From the NCBI GenBank assembly GCA_947624275.1, contig CANQJR010000002.1:1-58317 (forward strand): a DNA stretch of 58,317 bases, given 5' to 3'. The notes beneath the pieces are model-generated. The model made no database searches and had not been told where the DNA came from. It saw nothing but the letters and a program-made list of their open reading frames with translations. Below, piece by piece: positions 22,979 through 40,124 of this stretch. This DNA is from an uncultured Bacilli bacterium. GTDB taxonomy: Bacteria > Bacillota_I > Bacilli_A > RF39 > UBA660. Both the position numbers and the translations under genes were made by a program. How positions within the stretch are numbered: position 1 is the first letter of the stretch; each line of letters opens with the position of its first letter.

Positions 22979-25066
22979 CTATATCTTCTTTAAACTTTTA
23001 TGATTTTTCATCAATTTTCTAATTCCATATGGATGTTTAAATGCAATCGTTGCGACCGAATCGGATAAATCAATAATTTTTCCTTGACCGAAGACGTCGT
23101 GATAGACGAAATCGCCAACTGCATAATCGACATCCTCATGGTACATTTCCTCTTTATCAATTTTTTCTTCTGGTTCTTTTTCGACAAAAGCTTTATTGAT
23201 AAATCTTTCGTCGATCTCACTTATGAAACGACTCGTCGGATTAGACTGTTCCTTTCCATAAAGAGTTCGCATGCGACTGTTGACCAAATACAATCTCTTT
23301 TTAGCTCGCGTAATCGCAACGTAACAGAGGCGTCTTTCTTCTTCCAATTCACTGTTGTCCATGAGCGAGTTGATATGGGGGAAAATTCCTTCTTCCAATC
23401 CGACGACAAACACGTTGTCAAACTCCAAACCTTTGACCGAATGTACCGTCATCAGACTGACGCGATTCGGATCATCGCGATAGTCACTGATGTCCGTCAA
23501 CAAGCTGATTTCTAAAAGAAAGTCTTCTAGGGATATGATACCATCCCTTTCCTCGAACGTCTTCGTTATCGTTTTGAACTCTTCCAAGTTCTCCAGTCTG
23601 ATATCCGCTTCTAAAGTGTTCTCATTTTCTAACTCTTGACGAATACCAGTTACATCCAATATTTTATCGACTAACTCCGTCAATGTCAAATCGAGAGAAA
23701 TTCGTTTTAAATCTTCAATCATCTTTTTGAAATCCAATTCTTTACCACTATCAATTGCTTCATACATGCTGACGTTTAAAGAATCCGCTTTTAAATTTAA
23801 ATTGCTCAAACTCTTGAGACCGATTCCTCTTTTGGGAACATTGATAACTCTAGTCAAACTGACGTTGTCCTTCGAATTGTGGATGAGACGGAGATAGGCC
23901 AATAGATCTTTTATTTCTTTACGACTATAAAACCCTGTACCACCGACGATGGTATATGGTATATTCTCTTTTAAAAACTCTTCTTCCAAGACATGGGATT
24001 GAGCATTAGTCCTATAGATAACCGCTATATCTTGATATTCCACACCCTCATCTACTAACTTTTTCACTTCGCGCGTGCAATAGGCAGCTTCATCCTTCTC
24101 ATTAAACGCTTTGAAATAATTGATCTTTTCACCTTCGCCCTTATCAGACCATAGATTTTTATCTTTTCGTTCTTTATTATGTCTGATGACACAATTAGCC
24201 GCTTCCAAAATATTAGAAGTAGATCGATAATTCTGTTCGAGTTTAATCGTTTTAGCGTTTTGATAATCTTTTTCAAAATTTAAAATATTGCGATAATTAG
24301 CTCCTCTAAAACTATAAATAGATTGGTCATTATCGCCAACACAACAGATATTTTTATATTTGGCACTTATCATCTTAGTCAAAATGTATTGAGCTTCATT
24401 AGTATCTTGATATTCATCGATTAAGACATATTTAAACTTCTCTTGATATCTCTCCAAAATATTGATTCTTTCTTTGAACAGTTTGATCGGTAAAATCAAT
24501 AAGTCATCAAAATCGACAGAGTTATTGCGCTTTAACATCTTGTCATAGCGTTTATAAACTTCCCAAACGACTTTTTCTAAATCGCTAATGGCATATTTAC
24601 CGTATTCTTCACAAGATATCATTTCGTTTTTACAACTGCTTATCTTATTTCTAATGGCATTGGGATTATATATTTTGGAATCCAGATTCATCTCTTTCAA
24701 AATTCGCTTTATGACAGTGAGTGAATCATCGCTATCCATGATGATGAAATTAGAATCATAACCCAACTCTTGACAGTTTTCGCGAATTATTCGCACCCCA
24801 AAAGAGTGAAAAGTCGATACCTGACAATTGCGTGATAAATCACCGACTAAGCTATAGAGACGACTACTCATCTCTTTAGCGGCTTTATTGGTAAAAGTAA
24901 TCGCTAAGATGTTATACGGACTAACCTTTTTCTCCTTGATTAAATAAGCTATTTTGGTCGTCAAGACACGCGTTTTACCACTACCTGCTCCCGCCAAAAT
25001 TAAAAGAGGGCCTTCGGTTGTCAACACTGCTTCTCTCTGTTCTTTGTTCAAATCGTTCAAATCCAT
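22979..25066 (-). CDS. pcrA: ATP-dependent DNA helicase PcrA (UvrD family)
   Basis: MDLNDLNKEQREAV..AGAGSGKT (motif I), DEYQDT (motif II) and VHSVKGLEF. pcrA...ligA synteny as in Bacilli. Start trimmed to ATG 25066. Confidence 0.95.
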   Translation of the reverse strand: MDLNDLNKEQREAVLTTEGPLLILAGAGSGKTRVLTTKIAYLIKEKKVSPYNILAITFTNKAAKEMSSRLYSLVGDLSRNCQVSTFHSFGVRIIRENCQELGYDSNFIIMDSDDSLTVIKRILKEMNLDSKIYNPNAIRNKISSCKNEMISCEEYGKYAISDLEKVVWEVYKRYDKMLKRNNSVDFDDLLILPIKLFKERINILERYQEKFKYVLIDEYQDTNEAQYILTKMISAKYKNICCVGDNDQSIYSFRGANYRNILNFEKDYQNAKTIKLEQNYRSTSNILEAANCVIRHNKERKDKNLWSDKGEGEKINYFKAFNEKDEAAYCTREVKKLVDEGVEYQDIAVIYRTNAQSHVLEEEFLKENIPYTIVGGTGFYSRKEIKDLLAYLRLIHNSKDNVSLTRVINVPKRGIGLKSLSNLNLKADSLNVSMYEAIDSGKELDFKKMIEDLKRISLDLTLTELVDKILDVTGIRQELENENTLEADIRLENLEEFKTITKTFEERDGIISLEDFLLEISLLTDISDYRDDPNRVSLMTVHSVKGLEFDNVFVVGLEEGIFPHINSLMDNSELEEERRLCYVAITRAKKRLYLVNSRMRTLYGKEQSNPTSRFISEIDERFINKAFVEKEPEEKIDKEEMYHEDVDYAVGDFVYHDVFGQGKIIDLSDSVATIAFKHPYGIRKLMKNHKSLKKI

Positions 25067-25130
25067 ATGTATCATACCCTTCATATCAATTATACAGTAT
25101 CTCCAAGAGAAATAAAAGAAGAAGTCCAAT

Positions 25131-25156
25131 GAAAAAGAGGAATTATTTTTCCTCTT
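25131..25156 (-). terminator. Rho-independent terminator closing the five-gene orphan operon
   Basis: On the minus strand, an 8-bp stem AAGAGGAA/TTCCTCTT with the 6-nt loop aaataa (which contains the stop codon), followed by TTTC. It overlaps the stop of the 371-aa gene. Confidence 0.6.
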
Positions 25157-26258
25157 CTACTCTAAATATATAACGCCAAACTTCTTTACCATTGACGATG
25201 ACGAAGTATCCCTCTTTGTTACTCTTGGTCTCAAAATAAGCAATTGGAATGCGCAACTCATTTTGGGCATCTAACAACTCTTCAATGCTTTCCACTTCGA
25301 TGATGTTGTGATTGGCAAGATTGATCTTGTTCTTAACGCGCACGATCACTTCATTGTTAGCTGAAAGGATTCTATTCAATTTGTTGATATAACGCGTTTG
25401 GGCTCTTTCGCTCTTCATCACTTTTCTAAATTCTTGAACGAATAACAGAATAGCCGCAATGAACATTAGAACGGCAAAGGCGACAAAACAATAACTGTGT
25501 GCCATAGAACTGCTTTCAGAATAAACAGAATCTTTGACATCTTTCGGATTGTTTGTGGTTATCTTAACAGGATTAGTTGCGAGCGGAATGGTGACGTCCA
25601 TGACTTTCTCCAATTCCACAGTCTTGCCATCACACTCATCGACGATTGCCACGTGCATAGACACTTTTAAATAGGCATCGACGATCAAAGCATAAGTCGT
25701 ACGATATTTGTTCACGAAAGTATTATAAGTGGCATAATCGATCACATAGTCTTTTTCTAATGAATAATTATCACTAGCAATCACTTTACCAGTCATCGTA
25801 TTTTCCAACTGATAAGACCTAGTCAATAATCGTTCCCCTTGACGATGATTGATATCTTGGTCATTGATGACCAAATCAGCAACCGTAAAATATTTGTACT
25901 GATAATCGCCTAGTTGTTCTGTTTTAAAATTATACTTATAGTGGATATTTATCTTATCAATAATAGTCGTCGGATACAATTGATTCATACCGAGAGTATT
26001 TGATTGATAAAAATTATTTTTGCGAACGGTCACATCATAGGTGACTGAACTGTTCTCTTCATAATCAATGATGCTTTTCCTACTATCAACTTGAATATTG
26101 GTGGCCATCACCAACAAAGATATGGCACCGATGAATAATAAACAGATGAGAAAGGCATTAAAAACCATATGTCCCTTGATATCCAATTTAGTTTTAAAAA
26201 AGGTATCACTATTAAATTTTTCTTTTTTAGGTGTAACTTTTTTCTTTTTCATAAGCAC
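25143..26258 (-). CDS. Two-TM membrane protein with a large extracytoplasmic beta-rich domain and a roughly 95-aa cytoplasmic tail (possibly DUF5305-like)
   Basis: Basic N-terminus, TM1 (FNAFLICLLFIGAISLLVMA), about 200 aa outside, TM2 (CFVAFAVLMFIAAILLFV), then a charged C-terminal domain. The family assignment is from memory only. Confidence 0.5.
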   Translation of the reverse strand: MLMKKKKVTPKKEKFNSDTFFKTKLDIKGHMVFNAFLICLLFIGAISLLVMATNIQVDSRKSIIDYEENSSVTYDVTVRKNNFYQSNTLGMNQLYPTTIIDKINIHYKYNFKTEQLGDYQYKYFTVADLVINDQDINHRQGERLLTRSYQLENTMTGKVIASDNYSLEKDYVIDYATYNTFVNKYRTTYALIVDAYLKVSMHVAIVDECDGKTVELEKVMDVTIPLATNPVKITTNNPKDVKDSVYSESSSMAHSYCFVAFAVLMFIAAILLFVQEFRKVMKSERAQTRYINKLNRILSANNEVIVRVKNKINLANHNIIEVESIEELLDAQNELRIPIAYFETKSNKEGYFVIVNGKEVWRYIFRVEEEK

Positions 26259-26309
26259 CTCACTAGCAAACTATTCTATTATAAACATTATACTATAAAT
26301 TGATTTTTT

Positions 26310-26600
26310 TTAAATACCTATCAAATCAAAGTTGAAGACATCGGCATTGAGTAAAGCGATCATATTCGTATCACATTCTGACAAAGTGTCCTTTAAAGAA
26401 TCGAGACCGTCATAAAAAATATTAGTTTTATATATCAAGATATCTTTCAAATTCGTGATGCCAATCGATAATAAATAATCAATAATAGCGGTAACTCGCG
26501 GTTCGTTCAATTCGATTTCGATTCTATCATCATCATCAAGTCTTTGGGTTATGTCCATGATGTCTTCATCGGTTAAATCATATTTTTTTAAATATTCCAT
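26310..26600 (-). CDS. Hypothetical acidic 96-aa protein
   Basis: The ATG lies 1 nt after the stop of the upstream 620-aa gene. It contains IIDYLLSIGITNLKDIL, the same L-x3-G-[FIL] motif repeated in the upstream protein. Confidence 0.55.
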   Translation of the reverse strand: MEYLKKYDLTDEDIMDITQRLDDDDRIEIELNEPRVTAIIDYLLSIGITNLKDILIYKTNIFYDGLDSLKDTLSECDTNMIALLNADVFNFDLIGI

Positions 26601-26601
26601 A

Positions 26602-28464
26602 TCATTTCACCTTCTTCACCATATCGTCTTTAATGGAGGTGAAATTATCATTGGTCAATTTCATGCCACTGGTAAGACAATACAATAGTGCTCCTTCTCT
26701 TTTTTCAATGCCATTTTCTTTCAATAGGCTATAATTTCGCAAAAATTTAGGTCGAGAGATGACGACGTCACCGACGCGATAAACGTATTCATTATTGGCA
26801 ACACCAAAATCATTTTCCATTGTTTTTACTACTTCATCATCTAAAATGGCTGGATCAAATGACGGAGAAATAGAATTTTCAACAATGGAATTATAAAGAG
26901 AATAATTGGGAATGTTTTGTGATAGGGAAATAAAATTTTCTCTATTGATCTGTTCTGTCTTAGCGCGTCCCTTTTCTGATGCGACACTCGCAATAAATGA
27001 TGATGACAGATTGCCTTCAAAACCTAAATTGTTAGAGAAAATAGTCTCATAATAATCTTGGCTATTCATCATCTGTTTGAAATAAGAAGCGATGGTCAAG
27101 AAGTCATCGTTCAATCGTAACAAAACTGATGGATAGCGATGCGCATAGTTGGTTCGACCATAACTAGAAGAAACATCGCCATGTAATAATCCCAATTCGA
27201 TCAATTGATCACATTTTTCTTCGATGTTAGAAGTCGTCAATGAGGAAATGGGGAATTTGGACAAATCTTGACGATTTTCAAAAAAGCCATATTGTTGTAA
27301 GACTTCATATGAATGTTTTAAATGATAATTTGGTCGACGCAAAATAGACATGTTCTTCTTATCATTGATGGAAGCGTAGAACCCTTTGGAGAGAAGAAAA
27401 CGTTCATTCTCAATAATTTCATCAGCGGATATTTGATGGGCAACAGTTGACAATCGGTGATTTTCTTGAGGCAATAAGATCTTTTTATTGTGGCGTTTAC
27501 GCCTCGATTCTTGCTTGTAATCATTGACAATCCAAGCACTTGGCATCGTGAAGAAACCGCTGTCAAAACTTCCCCTTTTGATCATCCTATTGATCTGTTC
27601 TTCAACGCTTTCCTTATTACCATAAATAGCTATGGTCACTAAAGTCAATTGTTCATCTTTAAAACGTTGTAATAGACTCAAATCCAAGCCATCCAACTTG
27701 GCCTCTTTCAAACTCGTCAAAACTTCACGGATGTTGTCGATATCAGCATTATTCATTATTTCATTCGCATTGCTTTTAATGATTTTTTCAACATAAGGGT
27801 CATCCGTAAACTCCTTGAAAACAGCTAAGACATTTTCAATGGAAACTTTTTCTCTCTTTTGTACATTGTCGTTGTATGAATTAAATTTTATCAATACCTC
27901 TTTCTTAGTATCATTGGGTATCTTGGGACTGGTGATGATCGTTCTATAGATCAAATTCAAATCCTCATCATCCAAGGCGCTTTTCCCCGCCTTTATTTTC
28001 CCAATTAGATCATCATAAGAAATGATGTCATCCTGTAACTGTTCCATTCTTTTCTGTTGGGCAAAATTATTCTGATCAACACTTTCGAGAGTTCGCCCAA
28101 TGCGCTCGTCGACAGTGACCAATTTCGTCAACAAGTCATTGACAAAATCTCTTTGTTCTTGCGTCAAATCAGTAGCTAATCCATCGTGTTTACCCTTTAA
28201 GACTAGATAGATGTGCGATAATTTCTTTTCATAAGCCTTTAAATCAAAATCGTCTAAATTATCTTTCAAGATATTGCCAAGTTGTTCAATTTCTGCATAG
28301 AGAAGATCATCGATATCTCTTCTCAAACTGTCTATTGTATCCTCGACAGTTACTCGATATTGTTTCAATTGTTGAATATAATTTTGATTATCACGCGCAT
28401 CATAATCATTGTACTCTTTATTCAAACGCTTTAATTGTGATTGTAATATTTCGATTAGAGTCAT
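26602..28464 (-). CDS. Hypothetical 620-aa helical protein with three exact 32-residue repeats
   Basis: GGGGTGG RBS before ATG 28464, which lies 1 nt after the stop of the 65-aa gene. N-terminal coiled-coil-like acidic region. Gly of FLLSKGF, VLQQYGF and LIELGL falls at ORF-track residues 369, 401 and 433. Confidence 0.6.
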   Translation of the reverse strand: MTLIEILQSQLKRLNKEYNDYDARDNQNYIQQLKQYRVTVEDTIDSLRRDIDDLLYAEIEQLGNILKDNLDDFDLKAYEKKLSHIYLVLKGKHDGLATDLTQEQRDFVNDLLTKLVTVDERIGRTLESVDQNNFAQQKRMEQLQDDIISYDDLIGKIKAGKSALDDEDLNLIYRTIITSPKIPNDTKKEVLIKFNSYNDNVQKREKVSIENVLAVFKEFTDDPYVEKIIKSNANEIMNNADIDNIREVLTSLKEAKLDGLDLSLLQRFKDEQLTLVTIAIYGNKESVEEQINRMIKRGSFDSGFFTMPSAWIVNDYKQESRRKRHNKKILLPQENHRLSTVAHQISADEIIENERFLLSKGFYASINDKKNMSILRRPNYHLKHSYEVLQQYGFFENRQDLSKFPISSLTTSNIEEKCDQLIELGLLHGDVSSSYGRTNYAHRYPSVLLRLNDDFLTIASYFKQMMNSQDYYETIFSNNLGFEGNLSSSFIASVASEKGRAKTEQINRENFISLSQNIPNYSLYNSIVENSISPSFDPAILDDEVVKTMENDFGVANNEYVYRVGDVVISRPKFLRNYSLLKENGIEKREGALLYCLTSGMKLTNDNFTSIKDDMVKKVK

Positions 28465-28465
28465 C

Positions 28466-28663
28466 TTACCACCCCAATAATAAATCATATGTTTTTAGAT
28501 ATAATGAAAAATCTTTATCGCGAACACGGAATTTAGCGATGAAATCGTCTAGAGTAATGCCAAGGCAAAAAGCTAATTCTTCGATATCGACATTTTTTTC
28601 TTCGATCATTTTTAAACATTGGTTCTTCATATCGATATATAAAGCATCTAAATCGTTACTCAT
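28466..28663 (-). CDS. Small helix-turn-helix protein (Xre-like, antitoxin-sized)
   Basis: 65 aa. DIEELAFCLGITLDDFIAKF fits an HTH. Its ATG overlaps the upstream stop (ATGA). Confidence 0.55.
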   Translation of the reverse strand: MSNDLDALYIDMKNQCLKMIEEKNVDIEELAFCLGITLDDFIAKFRVRDKDFSLYLKTYDLLLGW

Positions 28664-30042
28664 GATAAAGTCACTCCTTTTTCACTGTTCAAGTTGCTAG
28701 CGAATGACTCAGCGAAAGCGGCACTCGCCGTCAAAACTCGTTCATCATTATTTCTGATATCGCCTAGTCTCTTCTTGATTGAATCATCGTATTTATCAAC
28801 GATGTGCTTAGCATTGTCATAAATCTTCGTAGCACTATCTATGTCAAGCAGTAATATCGTATCATCATTAACTCTGATGTAAGTACAAGCCATTTGCCCA
28901 GATTTTTTACAATAGACATGATAATCCGTTTTCTTGGCCATGCGCACTTTGGCATGTGAAGTTTTATTATCATAATCATAAAAACCGTTTTCCAATTTGT
29001 CCAAAAGCATCTTTACGCGCTTGTTATCATCAGTTTTAAAAGCTGATGTATCAAATAGTGGATTACCATCATCGTCTAAAAAGAACACTACTTTAGAAGG
29101 GGATCCATTCTCCTCACGTTCATCTTTTTCAAGTTCAACCATCGTCTCATCAATTTCACCCATGACATCCCCTAATTCCATCATGTATAGACTGACGTCA
29201 TCATAATTGGGTTTGTCACGTTCAAATTCTTTTTCCAAAGCATCGCGCATCTCTATCAATTCGACGACATAGACTAACATGCGCATATCGAGATAATTGT
29301 AGTCATCGAGATTGAAATCGACATTGTCGCGTCTAGCTTCCTTGATGGCATCGACGATGGCTTTAGCGGCCTTGATCTGTTCTTCATTCTTCCCTTCGAC
29401 ATAGCGATAGTTTTTAGAGATTGTCTCATTCAATTTGTCACTGATTTCTCTATAGTTCGCATAAAGAGTACGAACGTCATCTCTTTTTCCCTCTTCTTCA
29501 CCAATTAAGGAAGCGACATCAACAGAAATTTCCGCTTGATCTACACGTTTTGGACAACGCTTCAAAGTCTCGTTCAACAATACCGCAATCTGTTCTTCAT
29601 CAGACAGTTTACTCTGCGATAATAAGTCATTCATATACACGAAGTCATAATCATCACCCTCGATGAGTGGTTTTACTCTTTCTAACTCATCAACTTGTCG
29701 TTCTCGCAAATTTTCTTGATTTGGCAAGTCATCTAAATAATTATCCAAAGCCTTTGATGACAATATCTTATCAATGGCAATGGATACTTGTTCAATATCA
29801 CTGACACCGTTTTCAACAAAATAATTTATAACTTTGATCTGGTCGGCAATTTCATCATCAATTGTCGATAGAATTGGACGCATTTGTAATAAGTTATCAA
29901 CTGTTGGTCTCTTTTTAAAATCGATTATTGATTGTCCATTATCGATAAAAGATTCACATTTAGAAATAGCTCTTTTTAAACTGCGGGCATAATTTTCTAA
30001 ATAATCTTTAAATTTGGCTATTGCACGTTCATCTATTTCCAC
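28660..30042 (-). CDS. Hypothetical acidic helical protein with a possible RelE/HigB/Gp49-like C-terminal domain
   Basis: Start trimmed to GTG 30042 (GGCGAGGTG RBS), because an extended -10 promoter lies inside the longer ORF. The C-terminal segment VVFFLDDDGNP..RVKMLLDKLENG..HAKVRMAKKTDYHVY..ACTYIRVNDDTILLLDI follows the beta-alpha-beta3 pattern of Gp49/HigB toxins. This is a by-eye comparison only. Confidence 0.55.
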   Translation of the reverse strand: MEIDERAIAKFKDYLENYARSLKRAISKCESFIDNGQSIIDFKKRPTVDNLLQMRPILSTIDDEIADQIKVINYFVENGVSDIEQVSIAIDKILSSKALDNYLDDLPNQENLRERQVDELERVKPLIEGDDYDFVYMNDLLSQSKLSDEEQIAVLLNETLKRCPKRVDQAEISVDVASLIGEEEGKRDDVRTLYANYREISDKLNETISKNYRYVEGKNEEQIKAAKAIVDAIKEARRDNVDFNLDDYNYLDMRMLVYVVELIEMRDALEKEFERDKPNYDDVSLYMMELGDVMGEIDETMVELEKDEREENGSPSKVVFFLDDDGNPLFDTSAFKTDDNKRVKMLLDKLENGFYDYDNKTSHAKVRMAKKTDYHVYCKKSGQMACTYIRVNDDTILLLDIDSATKIYDNAKHIVDKYDDSIKKRLGDIRNNDERVLTASAAFAESFASNLNSEKGVTLS

Positions 30043-30069
30043 AATAAACACCTCGCCTATATTACAAAT

Positions 30070-30078
30070 ATTATACCA
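30070..30078 (-). promoter_or_regulatory. Extended -10 promoter of the orphan operon
   Basis: TGgTATAAT on the minus strand, about 28 nt upstream of GTG 30042. Confidence 0.5.
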
Positions 30079-30160
30079 TATATTTCTTTTCGTCATCGAG
30101 TTTTTTCACCAAAGGATGTCTATTTGCGTATAATACACTGTAATTATTAAGGAGGTAATT

Positions 30161-30756
30161 ATGAAAAAAACAATTATCAATATTGCAGTCATCGCATCAA
30201 TATTTTTAATTTTATGTGCTGCAATCCTCAATTTGAACAAAGGCGATAAAAATAGTGATAAAAATTTGACTAAAGTTAGAGTGGCTGAAGTTGCTCATAG
30301 TCTTTTCTATGCTCCCCAATACGCTGCCATCAACAATGGCTATTTCGAAGAAGAGGGACTGGACATAGATTTGACTTTGGCAAGTGGTGCTGATAAAGTT
30401 ACGGCGGCCGTTTTATCAGGCGATGTCGACATCGGTTTTTGTGGTAGTGAAGCAACCATCTACATCTATAATGGTGGCGAAGAAGACTATTTGAAAACTT
30501 TTGCCCAACTCACTCAAAAAGATGGCAGTTTCATCGTGGCAAGAGAAAAACAAGATAACTTCACGCTTCATGATTTGCGAGGAAAATATATCATCGGTGG
30601 ACGAGAAGGTGGTATGCCTGAAATGACATTGGAATGGATATTACGCGAAAATGGCATCGATCCCCAAAAAGATGTGACCATTGATACTAGTATCAGTTTC
30701 GCAGCTATGAGTGGTTCATTCATATCAGGAATAGGTGACTACGTATCATTATTTGA
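30161..30756 (+). pseudogene. NMT1/SsuA-type ABC substrate-binding lipoprotein, N-terminal part (interrupted by island 1)
   Basis: Signal/anchor peptide, then VRVAEVAHSLFYAPQYAAINNGYFEEEGLD...GDYVSLF. After 30756 the frame runs into island sequence (DINAAKRKH*). Confidence 0.85.
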
Positions 30757-30806
30757 TATTAATGCAGCAAAAAGAAAGCACTGAGCATAAAAAAAGATGA
30801 ATCGCT

Positions 30807-31559
30807 TCATCTATCCACTATTTTTCTAATGGCTGAAATTTGAAAATCTGTATTTTTGATAAAACTCTTACAATAATCACATTTGTTACCATGTAGTGCG
30901 GCTCCACAATTAGGACAATTAGTCAATTCTTCACGATTGAAATCCTTTCTAAATTCCACTTCAAATCGCTCAATGGTAGGATTTTCTCTATTACCACTAA
31001 TTATATAGCCATCCTTGTTCAAAGTATAACTTATGTAAGAGACGACGATCATAGCTGAAGCCACTTGTTTAGCGACAGTACTATCAACCTCATACAAGAC
31101 GACCTTTTTTCGTTTTATATCATTTATAACTTTTTTCTTACCAATTTTTAAATTGAGAGCTATACCCGTGTGATATTTTTGAAATAACTGTTCAGTACTC
31201 AACAAGCGCATCTCATTATAATCCAAATTGTTATAGGCATTTTCAAAGCGATAAAATATGTCGTATAAATAATCTTTTAATGAATCGATATCCTCGATAT
31301 TAAAGCGATCTAATTCTTTTTGAGATACATCAGTATAAATATTTTTCTTGCCATGAGTCGTATCTATCTCATTGTTCTTTTTAGAATTTTGATTCACGTC
31401 ATTAAAAACGATCGTCGTTTTAAAATATTTTTCTGAATTAGCTCTTCTAATGGAGTCACAGAGAACTTTTATGATCAAGAAAAAAATGATTAGAGGAGCA
31501 AGTGAGATGGCACTATAAATTAAAAAAGTTATCAAAATAGCAATATCCACAGACAACAA
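30807..31559 (-). CDS. Membrane-anchored Tim44-like/SnoaL-fold protein with a C-terminal zinc ribbon (island 1 cargo)
   Basis: N-terminal TM and a CPNCGA...CDYC ribbon near the C-terminus. The central region resembles Tim44-like domain proteins. This assignment is from memory. Confidence 0.45.
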   Translation of the reverse strand: MLSVDIAILITFLIYSAISLAPLIIFFLIIKVLCDSIRRANSEKYFKTTIVFNDVNQNSKKNNEIDTTHGKKNIYTDVSQKELDRFNIEDIDSLKDYLYDIFYRFENAYNNLDYNEMRLLSTEQLFQKYHTGIALNLKIGKKKVINDIKRKKVVLYEVDSTVAKQVASAMIVVSYISYTLNKDGYIISGNRENPTIERFEVEFRKDFNREELTNCPNCGAALHGNKCDYCKSFIKNTDFQISAIRKIVDR

Positions 31560-31676
31560 CCTACTTTCGTATTACAATTATACCAATATTATATCACAAA
31601 TTGAACAATTATTTATTTTATCGAAACTATTCTTTTTTTATTAGTTAAAATATTGTACAATGATATCGGTGATAAT

Positions 31677-33188
31677 ATGAAAGATAATCGAGAAGTAAGA
31701 GAATATCGCGATAAAGTAGTGAAGATGACTTTTATCATTTTTTTATTGATCAGTTTTATTAGTCCCGTCACAGGAGATGATTGGAAAAACTATGTCATAG
31801 GCAATTCTGGTCTTTTAAACATCTTCAAAAACGTATGGGAAATGTATTTGACTTGGGAGGGAAGAATGGCCAGTAGATTGTTCATAGATTTACTGATACC
31901 ACATAAATTGATATTTTCTACCCTATTTGCTTTACTCATAGCATCATCAACCTACTGCATTTGTAATTTGATGGGAAAAGTGAAGAGAAAAGAGTATTAT
32001 CTAATTCCACTAATTGCTTTATTGTTAGTCAACGTCAACAGTTTTGCCCAAAACTATACTTGGAAGACGGGATGTATCACTTATACCTTTCCTGCTCTGA
32101 TGACCATTTTATACTTCGCCTATATCTTTCAAAAGAAAACGCTCTATTTCGATCTAAAAGAAATAATTGCTCTATCGATAACGGCTTTATTAATCCCAAT
32201 GTTCGTCGAAAATATCGGTCTCAGTTTTGTGTTGGGAAACATCATCTTGACCAGTTTTTACTTCATCAAAAAAAGAAAGATATCATTACCTCTAACCGGT
32301 TTCACCATCATATCAGGAGTTTCTCTAATAGCCATGCTTCTAAGCCCAGGTTCAGCCCTTAGAATGGAGACAGAAACAGCATTTGCTTCCTTGAACCTCT
32401 TCGAAAAAATAGGCACTAATATCCCCAATTTTATTGCCCATGTCTTCACTCATAACTTCATCATAACCCTCTTGATGACGATACCGATTAACTATTATTT
32501 GTCGCGCGTTTTAAAAGGAAAGAAAATTTTCAAGAACTCAGTCATCGCTCTTTTCAACATCGTTCCCCTTTTCAACATCTACTGCAATCTACATGAGATG
32601 ATTCCTGTCAATGTGACATTAGTTTTCAAACCTTATAATGGCATCTTTCTACCATCCAAGTGGTATTTCATCTTCTACTGGATCATCTTCATAACGCTCT
32701 TCATTTTAAGTATCTTTTACATCATAAAAGATCAAAAGAAAAAAGAGATTGTCCTCTTTTTCTACATCATTACCCTAATGTCCAGCATGGCAATGTTACT
32801 ATCACCAGTCTGGGGTGAAAGAGTAGTATTTTTAACCATCTTGGGCAGTATTTTAACAGTATCTATTCTGATAGAAGAAATGCATCTCAAATTATCATTT
32901 AAAAAACTCCATTTTCTATTGATCATCTTGATGATATATTATTTCAGCATCTATACTTTTTCCTATTACATAGATCGTGAAAGAGGTAATTACATCAAAA
33001 AACAGATGCGTGAAAATAGCGATGTAATCGAAGTAATAGCTAATCCCTTTCATCTAGTTTGGAATTATAATCCAGACCTCAATGGACTAATCAATAAATT
33101 GCGATTATACTATGACATACCTAAAGATAAAGAAATCAAATTTGTCTATAGAGGTATCTTTAAAGAGATAGAAGACAAAGTAAAATAA
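31677..33188 (+). CDS. Polytopic membrane protein, possible GT-C type glycosyltransferase (island 1 cargo)
   Basis: At least 12 TM segments, with a GDDW motif in the first predicted external loop as in GT-C enzymes. GGTGA RBS before ATG 31677. Confidence 0.4.
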   Translation: MKDNREVREYRDKVVKMTFIIFLLISFISPVTGDDWKNYVIGNSGLLNIFKNVWEMYLTWEGRMASRLFIDLLIPHKLIFSTLFALLIASSTYCICNLMGKVKRKEYYLIPLIALLLVNVNSFAQNYTWKTGCITYTFPALMTILYFAYIFQKKTLYFDLKEIIALSITALLIPMFVENIGLSFVLGNIILTSFYFIKKRKISLPLTGFTIISGVSLIAMLLSPGSALRMETETAFASLNLFEKIGTNIPNFIAHVFTHNFIITLLMTIPINYYLSRVLKGKKIFKNSVIALFNIVPLFNIYCNLHEMIPVNVTLVFKPYNGIFLPSKWYFIFYWIIFITLFILSIFYIIKDQKKKEIVLFFYIITLMSSMAMLLSPVWGERVVFLTILGSILTVSILIEEMHLKLSFKKLHFLLIILMIYYFSIYTFSYYIDRERGNYIKKQMRENSDVIEVIANPFHLVWNYNPDLNGLINKLRLYYDIPKDKEIKFVYRGIFKEIEDKVK

Positions 33189-33214
33189 AGAGACTTGAAT
33201 TGTCAAGTCTCTTT
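33187..33214. terminator. Bidirectional terminator inside island 1
   Basis: 12-bp stem AAAGAGACTTGA/TCAAGTCTCTTT with a 4-nt loop. Confidence 0.7.
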
Positions 33215-34135
33215 TCATCCCATTATTTGTCCACCGTTATTGTGAATGACTTGACCAGTCATGTAGCTGGAATCATCACTCGCTAAGAAGACAAAAGTAG
33301 GTGCTAGTTCATAGGGCATTGCTCCTCTAGCCATGGCCGCATCGGCTCCTAATGATGGTATTTTTTCTTTGACCCAACAAGAAGGTTGAAGTGGCGTCCA
33401 GAAAAAGCCGGGTGCGATGGCATTTACCCTGATATTTTTCAAAGCTAAATTTCTAGCTAAAGCCCTTGTAAAGCCCACGATTGCCCCTTTAGTAGTAACA
33501 TAATCAATCAATTGTGGATCTCCATAAAAAGTTGTTACTGAAGTTAGGTTGATAATAGACGAACCCGCTTTTAAATGTGGTAATACCTCTTTCGTCAAAT
33601 AGAACATGCCATATACATTGACTTTCATCGTTTGATCAAATTGTTCGTCACTAATATCTTCCAATTTGTTCTGTTGATATTGAACCCCAGCATTATTGAC
33701 TAAAATATCGATCTTGCCAAAACGATCTAAAGTTTGTTCAACGATGTATTTAGAGAACTTTTTATCGATGATATTACCAGATAATAAGAGACATTCCCCT
33801 CCCAGTTTTTCAATATATGCCTTTGTCTCTTCCGCATCTCGATGTTCGTCATAATAAGGAATGACAACTTTTGCTCCCTCTTTGGCAAAAGCGACTGCAC
33901 AAGCTCTTCCCAAACCACTATCGCCACCAGTGATGATGGCAACTTTATCTTTTAATTTGCCACTGCCCTTATAATTGGGATTGTCAAAGACTGGACGAGG
34001 ATTCATCAAGTATTCTAAACCGGGTTGACGTCGCTGTGACTGTTCTGGAGCCATAATTTCATATTCCACACTTTGAATTCCCTTTGGATAATAATAATCA
34101 TAATACTTATTGCCAAATTCATAATTATGTTTCAT
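33215..34135 (-). CDS. SDR-family oxidoreductase (YhdF/YhxC general-stress type; island 1 cargo)
   Basis: TGGDSGLGRA cofactor motif, NNAG, and the long N-terminal leader typical of the GSP39 subgroup. GGAGGAAAA RBS before ATG 34135. Confidence 0.8.
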   Translation of the reverse strand: MKHNYEFGNKYYDYYYPKGIQSVEYEIMAPEQSQRRQPGLEYLMNPRPVFDNPNYKGSGKLKDKVAIITGGDSGLGRACAVAFAKEGAKVVIPYYDEHRDAEETKAYIEKLGGECLLLSGNIIDKKFSKYIVEQTLDRFGKIDILVNNAGVQYQQNKLEDISDEQFDQTMKVNVYGMFYLTKEVLPHLKAGSSIINLTSVTTFYGDPQLIDYVTTKGAIVGFTRALARNLALKNIRVNAIAPGFFWTPLQPSCWVKEKIPSLGADAAMARGAMPYELAPTFVFLASDDSSYMTGQVIHNNGGQIMG

Positions 34136-34166
34136 AATTTTCCTCCAATCTAATATATGTAAAAAA

Positions 34167-35798
34167 TCATTTCTTTTGCCCATTTTGGGAAATTTCATCA
34201 ACTTCTTTTTGATAATGATATTTGACTAAATAATCTATTTCATATCTCTTCGTGCTACTTGTATCAAAACCGCGCTTAAAACGGAAATCTTTCACTATGT
34301 CACTTCCCGTCACATTTAAATATAAATCAACAATTATTTTATCATCGCTTTTATCAATCCAAATTTGATCTATTAAGAGCTTATCAATGTCATCGAGTAT
34401 CTCCTTAGACGACATTCTTTTCGCCAAAGCGTTCTCAACTCTTTCTAAATCTAAATCTTGACTGTGATCTCGGACTATTTCTTTCTCTTTCGTGTTCAAT
34501 TCTTCTCGCTTTTTTAATAGTTCCTCATCCGTTATAATACCATTTAAATTCAATTCTAAAAGATGATTCTTTTTAACTTGGATCTCTTTTAAAGGTTCAG
34601 AGATATCTTCATCAACATTATCCAGATAGATATCTAATAGGGTTTTGATCAATTGCTTTTTAGAAAGAAAAACATCACTCACTGCTGAAATGATGACTTT
34701 TAGTTCACTCTCTCTAACTTTAGGACTGTCACAAAATCTTTTACCACTAGTCAAATACTTGGAACAGACCCAAGTCATATCGCTCTTTTTTTTTCGAAAA
34801 TGGCGCTTATAAAATGGCTTATGACAGTGGGCACAGTATATTTTACCATTATAGATATCAGAATCGACATTTTTGGTGCGCTCATTTCGTCTACTATGGC
34901 TTTTCTGATGAGCTAAATCCCAAGTTTGTTCTGTGATGATCGGTGGTATTTTTTGAACATCCTCATAAACGATCCATTCTTCTTCAGGCAAATGTTTTAC
35001 TCTTTTAGTCATATAATCGACGACTTCTACTTTTTTTCCACAATAATAACCTTTATATTTAGGATTTTTAATGATTCTCGATATCGATGTAGAAGACCAA
35101 TTCTTGTTTTGCCTAGTCTTAATGCCATCATAATTCAGTCTTCGACTTATGGCATTGAAAGATAGATCATCAATTATGTACATATCATATATCTTCTTGA
35201 TGACTGTTGCCTCTTCTTCAATTATTTTAAGATTTCCTGTGACACGATCTTTCTTATATCCATAAAGCATATCATTTCCTAAAATGTGACCATTTTCTTG
35301 GGAACGATGCATACCAAACTTCACTCGCTCAGATAACCTCCTAACCTCGTCTTGAGCAAGAGAAGCCATTATAGTAAGTCTTAGCTCACTGTCTGGCAAA
35401 AAGGTATTTATGTTGTCATTTAAGAAGAAGACTGCCACGCCACGATTCAACAATTCACGCGTGTATTTGATACTATCAAGAGTATTTCTAGAAAAGCGCG
35501 AAATCTCTTTAGTGATTATCAAATCAAATTTATTTTTTTTACTATCCGCAATCATGCGCATAAAGTTTTCTCGTCTGACGTCACTAGTACCAGTTATTCC
35601 TTCATCGACATACCCTTCGACATATTGCCAATTGCTGTTATCTTTGATCATTTTTTCAAAATGTTCATTTTGATTATTGAGCGATTGAATTTGTTCTAAG
35701 TGATCTGTTGAAACTCTAGAATAGTAAGTGACCCGCAATTCTAAATCTTTTAGATTATATCCCATATTTAATTTTTGTCGCATTTCTAATAGATCCAT
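34167..35798 (-). CDS. Large serine recombinase (island 1 integrase)
   Basis: Resolvase catalytic domain (YSRVSTDHLEQ, DLIITKEISRFSRN), recombinase domain, Cys-rich zinc beta-ribbon (C.HC...C) and a long C-terminal coiled-coil-like region. Confidence 0.9.
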   Translation of the reverse strand: MDLLEMRQKLNMGYNLKDLELRVTYYSRVSTDHLEQIQSLNNQNEHFEKMIKDNSNWQYVEGYVDEGITGTSDVRRENFMRMIADSKKNKFDLIITKEISRFSRNTLDSIKYTRELLNRGVAVFFLNDNINTFLPDSELRLTIMASLAQDEVRRLSERVKFGMHRSQENGHILGNDMLYGYKKDRVTGNLKIIEEEATVIKKIYDMYIIDDLSFNAISRRLNYDGIKTRQNKNWSSTSISRIIKNPKYKGYYCGKKVEVVDYMTKRVKHLPEEEWIVYEDVQKIPPIITEQTWDLAHQKSHSRRNERTKNVDSDIYNGKIYCAHCHKPFYKRHFRKKKSDMTWVCSKYLTSGKRFCDSPKVRESELKVIISAVSDVFLSKKQLIKTLLDIYLDNVDEDISEPLKEIQVKKNHLLELNLNGIITDEELLKKREELNTKEKEIVRDHSQDLDLERVENALAKRMSSKEILDDIDKLLIDQIWIDKSDDKIIVDLYLNVTGSDIVKDFRFKRGFDTSSTKRYEIDYLVKYHYQKEVDEISQNGQKK

Positions 35799-36059
35799 GT
35801 CATTCACTTCTCCGCCAGATTTCTCTCTCCGCTTTCCGATATAAATAATAGGATATATAAGATTCGTCATATAGGTCTTTATTTAGAATTAAGAGGAGCT
35901 GATAATAAATATTTTTATTCATAGTACATCATATGTCAAAAAAAGTTATTTCATCAAAAGATTATGATTTATTATTGTAAACATCAATTATTAGTTTTAA
36001 TTTTTGAAGTGATATTGCACTTTAAACAATTTTTAGCGTTTTCGTATTGTAACACTGAG

Positions 36060-36471
36060 TGAACCTAATGCTTTAGAAGTAGAAAAAGAAGGTTATGGTC
36101 ATGTAGTGGCATCTCTTGGACAATTGGGTGGTGTTGTCCCATACACATCATATAATGCTAAAATCAGTTATATCAAAGAGAACAGGGATATAATTGTCAA
36201 ATTCACTCGTGCAATTCAAAAAGGATTAGATTTTGTCAATAATAGTGATAGTGAAACCATTGCCAAAGCTATTGTAAATTTCTTTCCAGATACATCATTA
36301 GATGACTTAACTAAAGTGGTAGATAGATACAAGAAACAAGATAGTTGGCCAACGACGACATCTTTTAGTAAGAAATCGTTTGACCACTTACAAGAGATAA
36401 TGACATCAGCTGGACATTTGGACAAAAAAGTTCCTTATGAAGATTTGATCTATCAAATAGATGAAAAATAA
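36060..36471 (+). pseudogene. NMT1/SsuA-type binding protein, C-terminal part
   Basis: In-frame continuation EPNALEVEKEGYGHVVASLGQLGGVVPYTSY... to a stop that overlaps the ATPase ATG at 36461. Confidence 0.85.
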
Positions 36472-37039
36472 TATCTTAACGATTAAAAATTTAAAAAAGA
36501 TATATCACGATACTAAAGGTGAAACATTAGCAATCGATGATATATCTTTGGACATCAAAGAAAAAGACTTTATATCTATTGTAGGGCCATCTGGTTGCGG
36601 TAAATCAACACTTCTATCGATTTTAGCCGGTTTAGAGACAAAATCGGATGGACAAATAATCAGTGCTGACAATTTACGAATTGGTTATATGTTACAAAGT
36701 GACTCATTGTTTCCTTGGCGAACAGTTTTAGAAAATTGTCTATTAGGCTTAGAAATAAATCGAGAACTCAATGATGAAAATAAAGAGAGAGTCATAAACT
36801 TGTTAAAATCTTATGGTCTCTATGAGTTCAAAGACAAATATCCGTGCAATCTATCTGGTGGTATGCGCCAAAGAGTTGCCTTGATCAGAACATTAGCTAT
36901 CAATCCAGATATTTTATTATTGGATGAACCTTTCTCAGCACTAGATTATCAAACGCGTCTATCACTTGCTGATGACGTAGCGAATATCATAAAAAAGGAA
37001 AATAAGACAACTATTATGGTTACTCATGACCTAGCTGAA
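36461..37039 (+). pseudogene. NitT/TauT-family ABC ATPase, N-terminal part (interrupted by island 2)
   Basis: GPSGCGKST, LSGGMRQRVAL, LLLDEPFSALD and MVTHDLAE. After 37039 the frame enters island sequence (LIFQLT*). Confidence 0.9.
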
Positions 37040-37065
37040 CTCATTTTCCAATTGACATAAATTTA
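37040..37065. repeat. Island 2 left terminal inverted repeat (attP P' arm)
   Basis: CTCATTTTCCAATTGACATAAATTTA matches the reverse complement of 40147-40172 at 20 of 26 positions in exact register (hand count). Confidence 0.75.
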
Positions 37066-38376
37066 TTTGACAACTATCCAAGCATTTGGCAAACTGCGAA
37101 TAGTGCGTTGATATCCATTCCATGGATTGTTGACGTATTTGTTATTCTCGACGAGAGCTGTAGAAGTACCACCATCCAAGTTAGCTGCATTATAAGCCCC
37201 ATAATTAGCCATTATTTTGGCAACGTCAGCATAACTTGCTCCATAACTTCCCGGTTGATTACCACCATCGATGACCAAGAACAAAACGATACCATCTTTG
37301 CGTTGACCAATGACACTGCGCGAAGTTCCCCAAGTGAAGTTTTTAACATTGGCAAACTTATTTTTACCATTGACAATTAAGAATGGTCCCCAATCCATCG
37401 CATCTCTGATACCCATCTTTAATGCTTCTTCTTTGCTCATGTTTTTGAGTACCAAACGATTGTCTTTAGTAAATCCGATGAGTCCACCACTATTGATGCC
37501 TCTTCTGAATTCGCTCAACACTTTACCATCTTTGATGACGAGACCATGGGGAATACCACCATTGCTGTTCCAATAAGGATCATAAAAACCACCAGCATTC
37601 ATTGCTATCAACGCCTTATTTTTCTTGGCGATGATTGATAGTATTTCACCATATGCTCCATCATGGGTACCCGCCCCACTCGATGTAGCAATTTTCACTT
37701 TGGAAGGATCGTATATGGCTACTAAATAACCGCGATATTTATAATTTGCGCCAATCGTCGTACCATTGATTTTAATTATTTTATATAGATCATCTTCATT
37801 TTCTTTTGAAAGAATCTGTTCTTCATATTTATTGGCATAAATTTTTTGATTGTACTCAACTTTTTCAAATTCAATTTTATTACTGCTCTCCAACTCCGTC
37901 TTAGTCTCTTCTTTAGCCTGCATCAAAGTCTCATCAATCGTCTTGGCACTGAACAACCACGTCGCAAAATATTGATGATCCTTAGTCTTCATCGCGCTAT
38001 CAATGATATAATTGCGAATCTGACTATTGCTTCCATATAGTATTAAACCAATTATTAAAAAGAGAACGACATAGAGTGAAGACAAAGCTAATTTGATCAT
38101 TTTAGAAATCATATTATTGGGCTTTTTTATCTCATCGACAATTCCATAAACTAAAAGGACACTAAATACTAAAATTCCCACAAGACAAAAAGAACTTATG
38201 CGTTCGTTGACCAAATCATAACTGTGGAGAGATATGATGTAAGTCAAGACTAAAATGGGTAATAAAATTACTGATATTAACAAAAGTTTATTATCAAAAA
38301 AAGAAAGACTATCACGAGATACTTCTTTTTTATTCTTTTCATTCATATGTCGTTGTCTAATATTGGGGTATCTCAT
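37063..38376 (-). CDS. Phosphodiester glycosidase family protein (DUF2233-type) with an N-terminal membrane region (island 2 cargo)
   Basis: C-terminal domain with AMNAGGFYDP...GGIPHGLVIKDGKV...GPFLIVNGK...NLDGGTST, typical of the family. Confidence 0.75.
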   Translation of the reverse strand: MRYPNIRQRHMNEKNKKEVSRDSLSFFDNKLLLISVILLPILVLTYIISLHSYDLVNERISSFCLVGILVFSVLLVYGIVDEIKKPNNMISKMIKLALSSLYVVLFLIIGLILYGSNSQIRNYIIDSAMKTKDHQYFATWLFSAKTIDETLMQAKEETKTELESSNKIEFEKVEYNQKIYANKYEEQILSKENEDDLYKIIKINGTTIGANYKYRGYLVAIYDPSKVKIATSSGAGTHDGAYGEILSIIAKKNKALIAMNAGGFYDPYWNSNGGIPHGLVIKDGKVLSEFRRGINSGGLIGFTKDNRLVLKNMSKEEALKMGIRDAMDWGPFLIVNGKNKFANVKNFTWGTSRSVIGQRKDGIVLFLVIDGGNQPGSYGASYADVAKIMANYGAYNAANLDGGTSTALVENNKYVNNPWNGYQRTIRSLPNAWIVVK

Positions 38377-38387
38377 GTCTTTCTCCT

Positions 38388-38942
38388 TTACTTTATTACA
38401 CCGGAATGTTCTCCATTGCTATCAGCATCGATATAACTATCATAAAATGAAGTGCTATACTTTTTGAGATCTGTATCACTCCACTCGTTATAATCATCGA
38501 TTCTTCTATTGTATTCGCGAACTAGCGAAACATAAGCATTGACGATTGCTTCATAATTATGATTTATCGCTGAACACTTCTCATCGATATCATAATCATT
38601 ATAATTTCTAGCTGAGCATTCATAACGCAATTTTTTAGTCATCGTATCCAATGCTTTGATCTGTTCTTCAATATTTTTTAATTCTTTGATATTTTGTTCA
38701 TAGCGATATTTTATATCAGAATAATACTTGGCATCAAAAACCGTTGTATCCTTTATCTGATAAGAAATCTTTTCTAAATCAATCGCATAAGAATTGTAGC
38801 TGTTCTTAATTAAGTTCGCAGCTGCATTACTCATTTTGACATCGAGGCTATAACCATCGACAAAACTGATTGAATAACCGATTACAATCAAAACAAATGC
38901 TACAATTATAGTAACACTTGAAATTACTCTCACTCTCTTCAC
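38388..38942 (-). CDS. Hypothetical membrane-anchored protein (island 2 cargo)
   Basis: 184 aa. N-terminal TM, then a helical Tyr/Asn-rich domain. 11 nt upstream of the glycosidase gene. Confidence 0.5.
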   Translation of the reverse strand: MKRVRVISSVTIIVAFVLIVIGYSISFVDGYSLDVKMSNAAANLIKNSYNSYAIDLEKISYQIKDTTVFDAKYYSDIKYRYEQNIKELKNIEEQIKALDTMTKKLRYECSARNYNDYDIDEKCSAINHNYEAIVNAYVSLVREYNRRIDDYNEWSDTDLKKYSTSFYDSYIDADSNGEHSGVIK

Positions 38943-39038
38943 GTTACTCGCCTCTCTATTATAAAGTATACAATTATTTAAATATTAAATAAAGAAAAAA
39001 ATAATAATTTTACAGTATATTTTGCTCAATTGTAAAAT

Positions 39039-40124
39039 TTAATAATGGTTTATCTCCAATTGTTTATCTAAAGAGATAATTTTAATTTTCTTTATTTTTT
39101 CTTGAACGAAATGCTCTTTGAAAGAAGAAGTCTCATTGGCAATGTTTAAGTATTTATCTAAATACCTATGACTCACACTTTTAAAATCACAATTATGATT
39201 ATGACAGATGTAATTTATGTAACATTTGCCATGGAAATAAGTCCTTTTAGTCGCCATTCTTTGGTGACAGAGGCACTCCAATTTATTTGAATAATATGCA
39301 TCGCTTTTTGTGCGCAAACGATTTTGCAATTTCTCTCTCACTTCATAATATTGCTTTTCATCAATTATTTGTGTATGTCTTCCAACTGTTTCAAAGTAAT
39401 GATTAGTATTTATTCCATATCGCACTTTACCAATGTAATTGGGATTGGTCAAAATATTAATAATGTTTTTAGTCGTCCATTGTCTGTTCTTTTTGGTGTG
39501 AACCTTTTGACCATTCAGTTTTTTAGCTATGTCTGTAATACTAGTACCATTCAAATACATGGCAAAAATGTCTTTCACTATTTTGCTCTCTGATCGTTCA
39601 ACGGTTTGAACTTTTTCGCCTTTAGAACGACTATAACCATAAGAGGGAGTAGAACTGCACAAGCTATAACCTTCTCGCACCTTTCTCTCCAAACCAACTT
39701 TGATTCTCTCCACGATGGTCTCACGTTCAAATTCGGCAAATAAACCGATTATTTTGACAAACATTCTCCCCGCTGGTGAAGCAGTATCAATTGCTTCAGT
39801 CAATGAATTAAAAGCACAATTACAAGCTTGAAACAATTCGATCAAATCGATTAAATCCTTAGTCGATCTAGTCAGACGATCTATTTTATAGACCAAAACG
39901 TTATTGACTTGGGAACTCTTGACATCAGCAATCAATCTTTGAACTTCGCTCCTGTTCAAATTTTTACCACTTATACCTTCATCAATATATATGTCATAAA
40001 TTTCCCATTCTTTTATTTTGGCATAACTCATCAGTTTTTCTCTTTGAGCTCGTACTGAATAGCCATGCTTAGCCTGTTCCTCAGTAGAAACTCTAATATA
40101 TATACCAGTTTTAAAATCACTCAT
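39039..40124 (-). CDS. Serine recombinase, short form (island 2 integrase)
   Basis: 361 aa. GIYIRVSTEEQ catalytic Ser, VYKIDRLTRS, a recombinase domain and a Cys/His-rich ribbon (CLCHQ...CYINYICHNHNC), with very little sequence after it. Confidence 0.9.
   Translation of the reverse strand: MSDFKTGIYIRVSTEEQAKHGYSVRAQREKLMSYAKIKEWEIYDIYIDEGISGKNLNRSEVQRLIADVKSSQVNNVLVYKIDRLTRSTKDLIDLIELFQACNCAFNSLTEAIDTASPAGRMFVKIIGLFAEFERETIVERIKVGLERKVREGYSLCSSTPSYGYSRSKGEKVQTVERSESKIVKDIFAMYLNGTSITDIAKKLNGQKVHTKKNRQWTTKNIINILTNPNYIGKVRYGINTNHYFETVGRHTQIIDEKQYYEVREKLQNRLRTKSDAYYSNKLECLCHQRMATKRTYFHGKCYINYICHNHNCDFKSVSHRYLDKYLNIANETSSFKEHFVQEKIKKIKIISLDKQLEINHY

Follow-up and report, generated by a model that had tools for sequence, protein, structure and literature searches.

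In a 58,317-nt stretch of DNA from an uncultured Bacilli bacterium of the UBA660 lineage (GenBank assembly GCA_947624275.1, contig CANQJR010000002.1; hereafter the window), five consecutive open reading frames (ORFs) are present on the minus strand next to pcrA. We refer to them as genes A, B, C, D, and E in the order of their transcription. A preliminary description made from the sequence alone had treated them as one self-contained, tightly coupled operon of no recognizable function and had proposed a toxin–antitoxin-like (TA-like) or defence module with a membrane effector. All five ORFs and the tight coupling were confirmed (Table 1), and the same set of 460, 65, 620, 96, and 369 amino acids (aa) was reproduced by independent gene calls on two metagenome contigs from the same species, where the encoded proteins are 97–100% identical. 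Comparison with these contigs gave ratios of non-synonymous to synonymous substitution rates (dN/dS) of 0.25 for A, 0 for B, 0.15 for C, 0 for D, and 0.05 for E, with 0.06 for pcrA. Since within-species dN/dS lies between 0 and 0.27, all of A–E are genuine, constrained genes. The products of A, B, C, and D have isoelectric points (pI) of 4.6, 4.4, 5.3, and 4.05, respectively, and a hydrophobicity check of these four proteins revealed no transmembrane (TM) or hydrophobic segment. The GC content of the A–D region equals that of its flanks, with no compositional anomaly.

The extended −10 promoter reported in front of gene A as TGgTATAAT is indeed there (TGGTATAAT). A TGnTATAAT element also precedes gene A in four loci from other genomes (L099, L104, L106, and L107; compared loci are given L numbers), that is, in all homologous cassettes for which upstream DNA was read; in L104, L106, and L107 it lies past the terminator of the upstream gene. 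No inverted-repeat operator was found in the gene A promoter of the window. The terminator said to overlap the last stop codon did not hold up: the hairpin at this position is weak (−10.9 to −11.5 kcal/mol, z −1.28), 24 of 200 shuffled sequences fold equally well, the stem consumes part of the U-run, and the terminator scan did not report it. The downstream gene pcrA has its own extended −10 element (TGTATAAT, 25089–25096) and is therefore probably independent of read-through from the genes upstream.

Table 1. Genes and other features of the A–E locus and its downstream neighbour, with coordinates in the window.
Feature	Position	Strand	Basis and remarks
Extended −10 promoter of A, TGGTATAAT	30070–30078 (reads 30078–30070)	−	Read directly, in front of A
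Gene A	28660–30042	−	ORF, 460 aa; GTG start downstream of ribosome-binding site (RBS) GGCGAGGTG
Predicted HigB/RelE-fold domain of A (residues ~318–452)	28687–29091	−	Foldseek
Gene B	28466–28663	−	ORF, 65 aa; ATG overlaps the stop of A as ATGA
Gene C	26602–28464	−	ORF, 620 aa; ATG 1 nt past the stop of B
Most conserved motif of C, YxYxxGxxxISRxKxLRxY (β-hairpin and helix)	26716–26793	−	Alignment A1 and model
Gene D	26310–26600	−	ORF, 96 aa; ATG 1 nt past the stop of C
A–D cassette including its own promoter	26318–30100	−	Colinear flanks in closest relatives
Promoter of E, TTTAAA-16-TATAAT	26287–26314 (reads 26314–26287)	−	D–E gap; conserved in relatives without A–D
Gene E	25143–26252	−	ORF, 369 aa; ATG at 26252
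Weak hairpin over the stop of E	25133–25158	−	Folding energy
pcrA extended −10, TGTATAAT	25096–25089	−	In the 76-nt gap after E
pcrA	22979–25066	−	Conserved neighbour downstream of E; followed by NTP_transferase and ligA, as in relatives

Recurrence of these genes was followed through gene C. A word-indexed homologue search with C, used as a single sequence or as a profile, returned essentially only C itself, while an exhaustive HMMER scan of 1.84 billion protein representatives revealed a family of 72 clusters (at 50% identity), mostly full-length and at 25–35% identity. Loci fetched via this family show that at least four further species carry all of A–B–C–D. The set lies between frr and ackA in L098/L104/L105 and in L099, immediately after frr in L107, and between greA and tig–lon in L106. 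Gene order and tight coupling are the same as in the window, protein sizes are nearly constant (A 438–460, B 65–66, C 615–636, and D 93–96 aa), and B follows A with the ATGA overlap in the window, L098/L104, L099, L106, and L107. Reduced sets were also found: A'–C'–D' without B in L100 and L101, among various neighbours (upstream of uppS in L101), and a 213-aa protein followed by C–D in L103, adjoining znuA, yidD, rnc, and rnj. The A family matches A' of L100 and L101 with an hhalign probability of 97.8, so that homologues of gene A are present in L098, L099, L100, L101, L104, L106, and L107. Every locus seen pairs a C-type gene with an adjacent D-type gene, whose product is small, acidic, and helical, and the D-family hidden Markov model matches at 17 out of 17 C/D or Bg/D loci (Bg is introduced below). 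Judged by these arrangements, C and D are the obligate core, A is usually present, and B is optional. In the other species no recombinase or defence gene was found beside the module. All occurrences so far come from metagenomes or metagenome-assembled genomes (MAGs) of uncultured low-GC Bacilli, and the named ones from guts. By gene order and sequence, A–B–C–D are an undescribed unit whose genes travel together, are translationally coupled, and have a promoter of their own.

In ten genomes at a greater distance, where pcrA is ~58% identical and among which is a Candidatus Coprovivens MAG, C/D-like genes occur in the same slot between a substrate-binding protein (SBP) gene and pcrA. Two arrangements are seen there. 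In L027 and L029 a ‘big’ protein is accompanied by a 95-aa protein; in the others a protein designated Bg is followed by M112 (replaced by a 267-aa protein in L031) and then by a 95-aa protein, D95. The D95 family matches D (hhalign probability 95, E 2.5e-8), and the C-terminal 250 aa of the ‘big’ proteins match the C-terminal half of C (hhalign probability 95–96). M112 and D95 are fused into one 206–207-aa protein in L026 (9166–9789) and L028 (4037–4657), while Bg and a C-terminal half homologous to that of C form a single 661–758-aa protein in L027 (4264–6249) and L029 (7309–9585). Such a pattern of fusion and fission among C/D-type parts argues for their physical association.

Comparison with close relatives allowed us to define the edges of the cassette. 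The closest relatives by pcrA are L087, L094, L088, and L092 (79.5–81% identical to pcrA of the window), and in them a short intergenic region separates a divergently transcribed NMT1-type SBP gene from E. On either side of 26318–30100 the window is colinear with the stretch between the SBP and DUF5305 genes in L087, L088, L091, L092, and L094, and the colinear flank includes the promoter and RBS of E (the DUF5305 gene). Thus, the segment 26318–30100, containing the promoter of A and genes A–D, is an indel of 3.8 kb with precise edges; the flank-homologous sequence takes in the last two codons and the stop of D. Across ~30 related genomes the SBP|pcrA slot is highly variable: it may be empty or hold a 115-aa ORF, Fic/DOC, VanW, a ResIII helicase with HA repeats, pilin and sortase, Bg–D95, or DUF5305. 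The idea of an accessory-gene hotspot, put forward in the preliminary description, therefore holds. By locus, the slot is empty in L030 and contains the 115-aa ORF in L007, Fic/DOC in L016 and L038, and a VanW-like gene in L021. In L037 a 1095-aa ResIII helicase, in which HA repeats occur seven times, is accompanied by a 96-aa protein, and L009 has a pilin–sortase cluster.

The A–D genes evolve much faster than the genes that flank them, yet they are under purifying selection. Between L098 and L099 the flanking genes frr, nrnA, and ackA are 87%, 77%, and 55% identical, respectively, compared to 52% for B, 39% for D, 37% for C, and 27% for A; the module therefore evolves fast while remaining intact. 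In a comparison within one species, L098 (1345–1887) versus L104 (2877–3419), frr is 92% identical, whereas A–D, ackA, and nrnA are 99–100% identical, a difference that suggests recombination with a boundary at the cassette's upstream edge.

Gene E differs from the other four in being the only one whose product matches a protein family: its score with Pfam PF17231 (DUF5305) is 45.4 bits, where the cut-off is 29 (E 8.4e-12), and the match spans positions 14–217 of the 217 in the profile. Thus, the absence of a recognizable function applies to A–D, which have no family assignment, and not to E. The layout given previously for E, with two TMs, an outside domain, and a cytoplasmic tail, is consistent with its two hydrophobic segments (~25–56 and ~248–279), but the length and spacing had to be corrected: the start is most likely ATG 26252 and not GTG 26258, with an RBS (GAGGTG) that is kept in relatives, giving 369 instead of 371 aa and a D–E gap of 57 instead of 51 nt. 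E homologues form 49 clusters at 32–57% identity, most with a precomputed PF17231 assignment. In eight out of eight contexts looked up (within L087–L097), a homologue (42–57% identity) immediately precedes pcrA–NTP_transferase–ligA, and none of these contexts contains a homologue of A, B, C, or D. Conversely, no E-family gene was found at any other A–D module locus. The TTTAAA-16-TATAAT promoter of E is likewise conserved upstream of DUF5305 in relatives lacking A–D. Its neighbourhood and family show E to be a DUF5305/TafG-like membrane protein that is independent of the cassette and vertically conserved in the pcrA region. The co-travelling unit is therefore A–D, and not all five genes as had been proposed; and since E has a conserved place beside pcrA, a promoter of its own, and membership in a described family, and is never found with A–D elsewhere, the module has no ‘membrane effector’.

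DUF5305 (TafG) proteins have two TMs, an extracellular β-sandwich, and a cytoplasmic α/β domain, and TafG was proposed to be an accessory subunit of signal peptidase I in Tafi/AbpX/TasA-like fibre loci (PMC11821415; bioRxiv 10.64898/2026.01.04.697558). E resembles them in topology, with an extracytoplasmic domain of some 190 aa between its two TM helices and a tail in the cytoplasm, and scores above the Pfam gathering threshold. Unlike in the published loci, neither a signal peptidase I gene nor a TasA-like gene was seen in the window or in L087–L097; relatives of E in L089, L090, and L097 adjoin SpaA pilin and sortase genes, with pcrA always next. In these three loci (L089, 6571–11068; L090; L097, 6547–11131), which belong to the more distant of the related contexts, the order is SpaA pilin, sortase, an unannotated protein of ~265 aa, DUF5305, and pcrA. 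A link of DUF5305 to sortase-pilus biogenesis, rather than to the signal-peptidase/TasA context of the literature, is possible. E is best annotated as DUF5305/TafG-like and handled apart from A–D, and its invariable position before pcrA, in the same three loci behind a pilin–sortase cluster, provides a separate lead on the putative function of this family.

For the A–D proteins sequence searches gave no such lead. None has a family match in Pfam, NCBIfam, PADLOC, or PHROGs (noise only in the latter), PDB sequence searches with A and B and profile searches with A, its C-terminal domain, B, C, and D gave nothing significant, and PADLOC-DB v2 returned no families for any of the five proteins of the locus at E ≤ 1. 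With tblastn, A and C were unmatched in phage records and A was unmatched in plasmid records; a scan of IMG/VR with the C alignment gave no match.

Structure prediction was more informative for gene A. The AlphaFold2 model of A, built from a nine-sequence alignment, has a predicted local distance difference test (pLDDT) score of 75 (>90 for residues 10–130). It begins with a helical domain, continues through a disordered, acidic linker and four long helices, and ends in a β-α-β-β-β domain. Over residues ~318–440, Foldseek matched this last domain to Streptococcus pneumoniae HigB chains of 6AF4 and 6AF3 with probabilities of 0.94–0.99 and target TM-scores (TMt) of 0.56–0.62 over ~120 columns, at a root-mean-square deviation (rmsd) of ~4 Å; for 6af4_C the values are 0.99, 0.62, and 3.8, and the probability for 6af3_A is 0.97. 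6AF4 is the S. pneumoniae HigBA complex (PMC7984235). Methanocaldococcus jannaschii RelE (3bpq_B, probability 0.85), HigB2 (5jaa), and ParE2 (7r5a) were also matched. Over the HigB and RelE chains TMt is 0.50–0.62, with E-values of only 0.26–3. A is 438–487 aa long across all homologues, and the HigB-like fold occupies only its C-terminal ~130 aa. The C-terminal core (alignment A6) is acidic to near neutral in modules with B (pI 5.5–6.5) and basic (pI 8.8–9.6) in L100 and L101, which lack B. Hhalign gave no support for a relationship between A and C or between the short Bg proteins and A.

Downstream of A, the product of gene B is the best conserved of the four cassette proteins (43–52% identity); on visual inspection it looks like a minimal helix-turn-helix (HTH) protein of the XRE type. 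The resulting arrangement is similar to that of HigBA: the gene with the predicted toxin fold comes first and is followed, with a 4-nt overlap, by a small HTH-like gene whose product is acidic. There are considerable differences as well. In A the predicted fold makes up the C-terminal quarter of a 460-aa helical protein rather than a free protein of ~100 aa (a typical toxin has ~90–120 aa), A belongs to no sequence family, the gene in the antitoxin position, B, is not constant and is absent from some modules, and two more obligate genes, C and D, have no TA counterpart. Of the HigB active-site residues reported (R68, R73, F90, and K92; PMC7984235), none has a conserved counterpart in A. The TA likeness suspected previously finds some support in the predicted fold of A and the small HTH-like gene behind it, but not in catalytic residues or in a constant partner.

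C and D are predicted to be helical. The AlphaFold2 model of C (pLDDT 88, 46-sequence alignment) is all-α apart from one β-hairpin; it contains a 58-residue helix (102–159) and a disordered loop (316–335), and the hairpin with its adjacent helix carries the most conserved motif of the family, in which Y562, S570, and K573 are invariant. The same motif is present in the ‘big’ proteins of L029 and L027. A Foldseek search with the model against PDB and BFVD found nothing significant, its TAL-effector and tape-measure hits being at noise level, and when 46 C-family members were scanned against Pfam no family was common to them. We considered and discarded an SxxK/Ser-Lys catalytic site or a tyrosine-recombinase-like domain at the S570/K573/Y562 motif (no fold support) and D as a repeat of C (no hhalign support). 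An AbrB-like reading of this motif of C was set aside too. Some likeness to α-solenoid binders can be noted: the best, non-significant, structural hit of C is the TAL protein dHax3 (E 0.11, probability 0.63, TM ~0.2), the D-family profile touches human mTERF domain-containing protein 1 (3m66, E 0.83), and helix-hairpin ‘LxxxG’ motifs are repeated. However, these scores do not rise above noise, the pI values of C and D (5.3 and 4.05) are acidic, self-comparison with hhalign revealed no repeat periodicity, and a Pfam mTERF match is absent, making this a lead only.

Taken together, the locus consists of two things side by side, the A–D module and the independent DUF5305 gene E, and we find this reading rather probable as a whole, with A–D as a TA-derived module that would form a cytoplasmic complex. 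The family of E is already known, while A–D are without annotated relatives and connect to HigBA only at the level of predicted fold; A–D probably represents an undescribed cytoplasmic module of TA origin, whose function we can only predict. A–D would be one transcription unit from which a cytoplasmic multi-protein complex is made. The module may descend from, or incorporate, a HigBA-like TA pair in which the toxin fold became fused to a long helical arm, and the fold would probably no longer act as a classical RNase; we hold this part of the reading with moderate to low confidence. In such a complex the HigB-like domain of A could serve as a binding or regulatory domain, possibly aimed at the ribosome or RNA, B could be a partner or autoregulator of A, and C–D could form a helical scaffold or sensor. 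More tentatively, we consider that A–B–C–D may be a new kind of system, in which a tethered HigB/RelE-fold A, its partner B, and fast-evolving helical C–D act as a ribosome- or RNA-directed regulator or a conflict system of small-genome gut Bacilli, C having a new fold arrangement.

Several observations weigh against the TA-derived reading. The HigB-fold assignment comes from a medium-confidence model (domain pLDDT ~70–85, nine-sequence alignment, Foldseek E 0.26–3) and has no sequence-profile support from PDB searches with A or its C-terminal domain. No match to HigB, Gp49, RelE, ParE, or YoeB types was found for A in Pfam, NCBIfam, and PADLOC (E ≤ 1–10), and a Pfam scan of five C-terminal domains of the A family revealed no RelE-type match. 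The invariant residues of the domain, Y388, I389, I407, and I422, are all hydrophobic, so that the HigB catalytic residues have no conserved counterpart; R390 is not conserved, L100 and L101 having K or V at this position, and a KK motif is lacking. For B, no HTH-family match was obtained in Pfam or in PDB sequence and profile searches, and the protein is acidic (pI 4.3–5.2). B is missing from L100, L101, and L103. Because A' of L100 and L101 keeps the domain without B, A is unlikely to be a toxin that requires B. All four A–D proteins are acidic, which argues against simple nucleic-acid binding. Finally, the indel may reflect either an insertion in the lineage of the window or a loss in the relatives.

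The lack of a conserved catalytic set in the HigB-like domain would also be expected if the fold were merely structural and A–D were a vertically inherited, lineage-specific housekeeping complex, acting for example in translation, transcription, or on the chromosome. We regard this as possible, though doubtful. In every case the module is surrounded by core genes (frr, pheST, ackA, nrnA, greA, tig, lon, rnc, rnj, uppS, and pcrA), frr|ABCD synteny is common to three species, no integrase, transposase, or defence gene adjoins it, the GC content equals that of the flanks, and the genes are under purifying selection. The preliminary description had named assignment to housekeeping families in fixed synteny as a finding that would speak against a new system, and the data go part of the way towards it: the neighbours are of the housekeeping type and in fixed synteny (frr|ABCD|ackA in three species), but no family is assigned to A–D. 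The behaviour of the cassette fits poorly with such a complex. It is absent, as a precise indel, from the slot in the five closest relatives, its position differs among species, its gene content varies (A and B can each be missing), its divergence far outpaces that of the neighbouring genes, and a single-sequence search with C gave only 72 clusters (50% identity) among 1.84 billion representatives.

The same fast evolution (of A, C, and D) and presence/absence polymorphism, in a slot that elsewhere holds Fic/DOC and the ResIII helicase, would be in line with an active anti-phage or abortive-infection system, where C–D would sense infection and release or activate a HigB-like RNase in A, with B as antitoxin or repressor. 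The toxin-then-antitoxin order of the HigB-fold domain and the HTH-like gene, as well as the strong promoter of the cassette itself, could be read in this way, and A–D shares with systems in PADLOC-DB v2 a tightly coupled multi-gene operon, coiled-coil proteins, and a variable genomic slot. Yet, unlike those systems, A–E contain no ATPase, nuclease, or protease motif and have no defence-island context. PADLOC gave no match, none of the ~8 distinct contexts has defence neighbours, C is not in IMG/VR, A and C are not in phage records, and A is not in plasmid records; conservation does not extend to the toxin residues, some members of the family do without B, and the synteny is housekeeping. We therefore judge this explanation improbable. 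With nothing linking the cassette to defence islands, phages, or plasmids, the defence role suggested earlier found no backing; a survey of gene neighbourhoods did reveal that A–D co-occur in other genomes, but not with E and not in defence islands. Very improbable in our view is the original grouping of all five genes into one system, with E as the membrane effector or anchor of the A–D complex. The common strand, the D–E gap of only 57 nt, and the lack of a strong terminator between D and E, which makes read-through into E likely in the genome of the window, are compatible with it; but E is absent from all other module loci, the eight E contexts examined are all without A–D, a conserved promoter serves E itself, and the DUF5305 family is tied by literature to signal peptidase and fibre loci.

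If A–D functions as a unit, it adds at least four new protein families, the C family alone comprising 72 clusters with no annotation anywhere, and presents an unusual use of the RelE/HigB fold, fused to a ~310-aa helical arm in a four-gene operon. The hosts are uncultured small-genome gut Bacilli with almost unknown biology, and the module lies beside translation and transcription genes. It is therefore a concrete, clonable 3.8-kb target for studying the domestication of a TA fold, be it for housekeeping or for defence.

Some further observations concern the DNA on the other side of the cassette. The NMT1-type SBP gene of the ATP-binding cassette (ABC) operon adjoining it is split in the window by a large-serine-recombinase element, and a second element sits in the ATPase gene (30161–30784, 30807–35870, 36106–37060, and 37063–40124). 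The same SBP gene is interrupted in many related genomes (L007, L025, L029, L033, and L087–L096) by recombinase elements with different cargo: Tim44-like, DUF6056, and SDR genes in the window, MgtC, SpaA pilin, and sortase in L088–L096, and an ADP-ribosyltransferase with WXG100 in L029. The SBP gene looks like a recurrent, gene-specific integration site. Past the ABC permease, at 42667–44716, a SpaA/TED pilin (494 aa) stands beside a 194-aa ORF in the sortase position, an arrangement that mirrors the left edge of L094 and L096.

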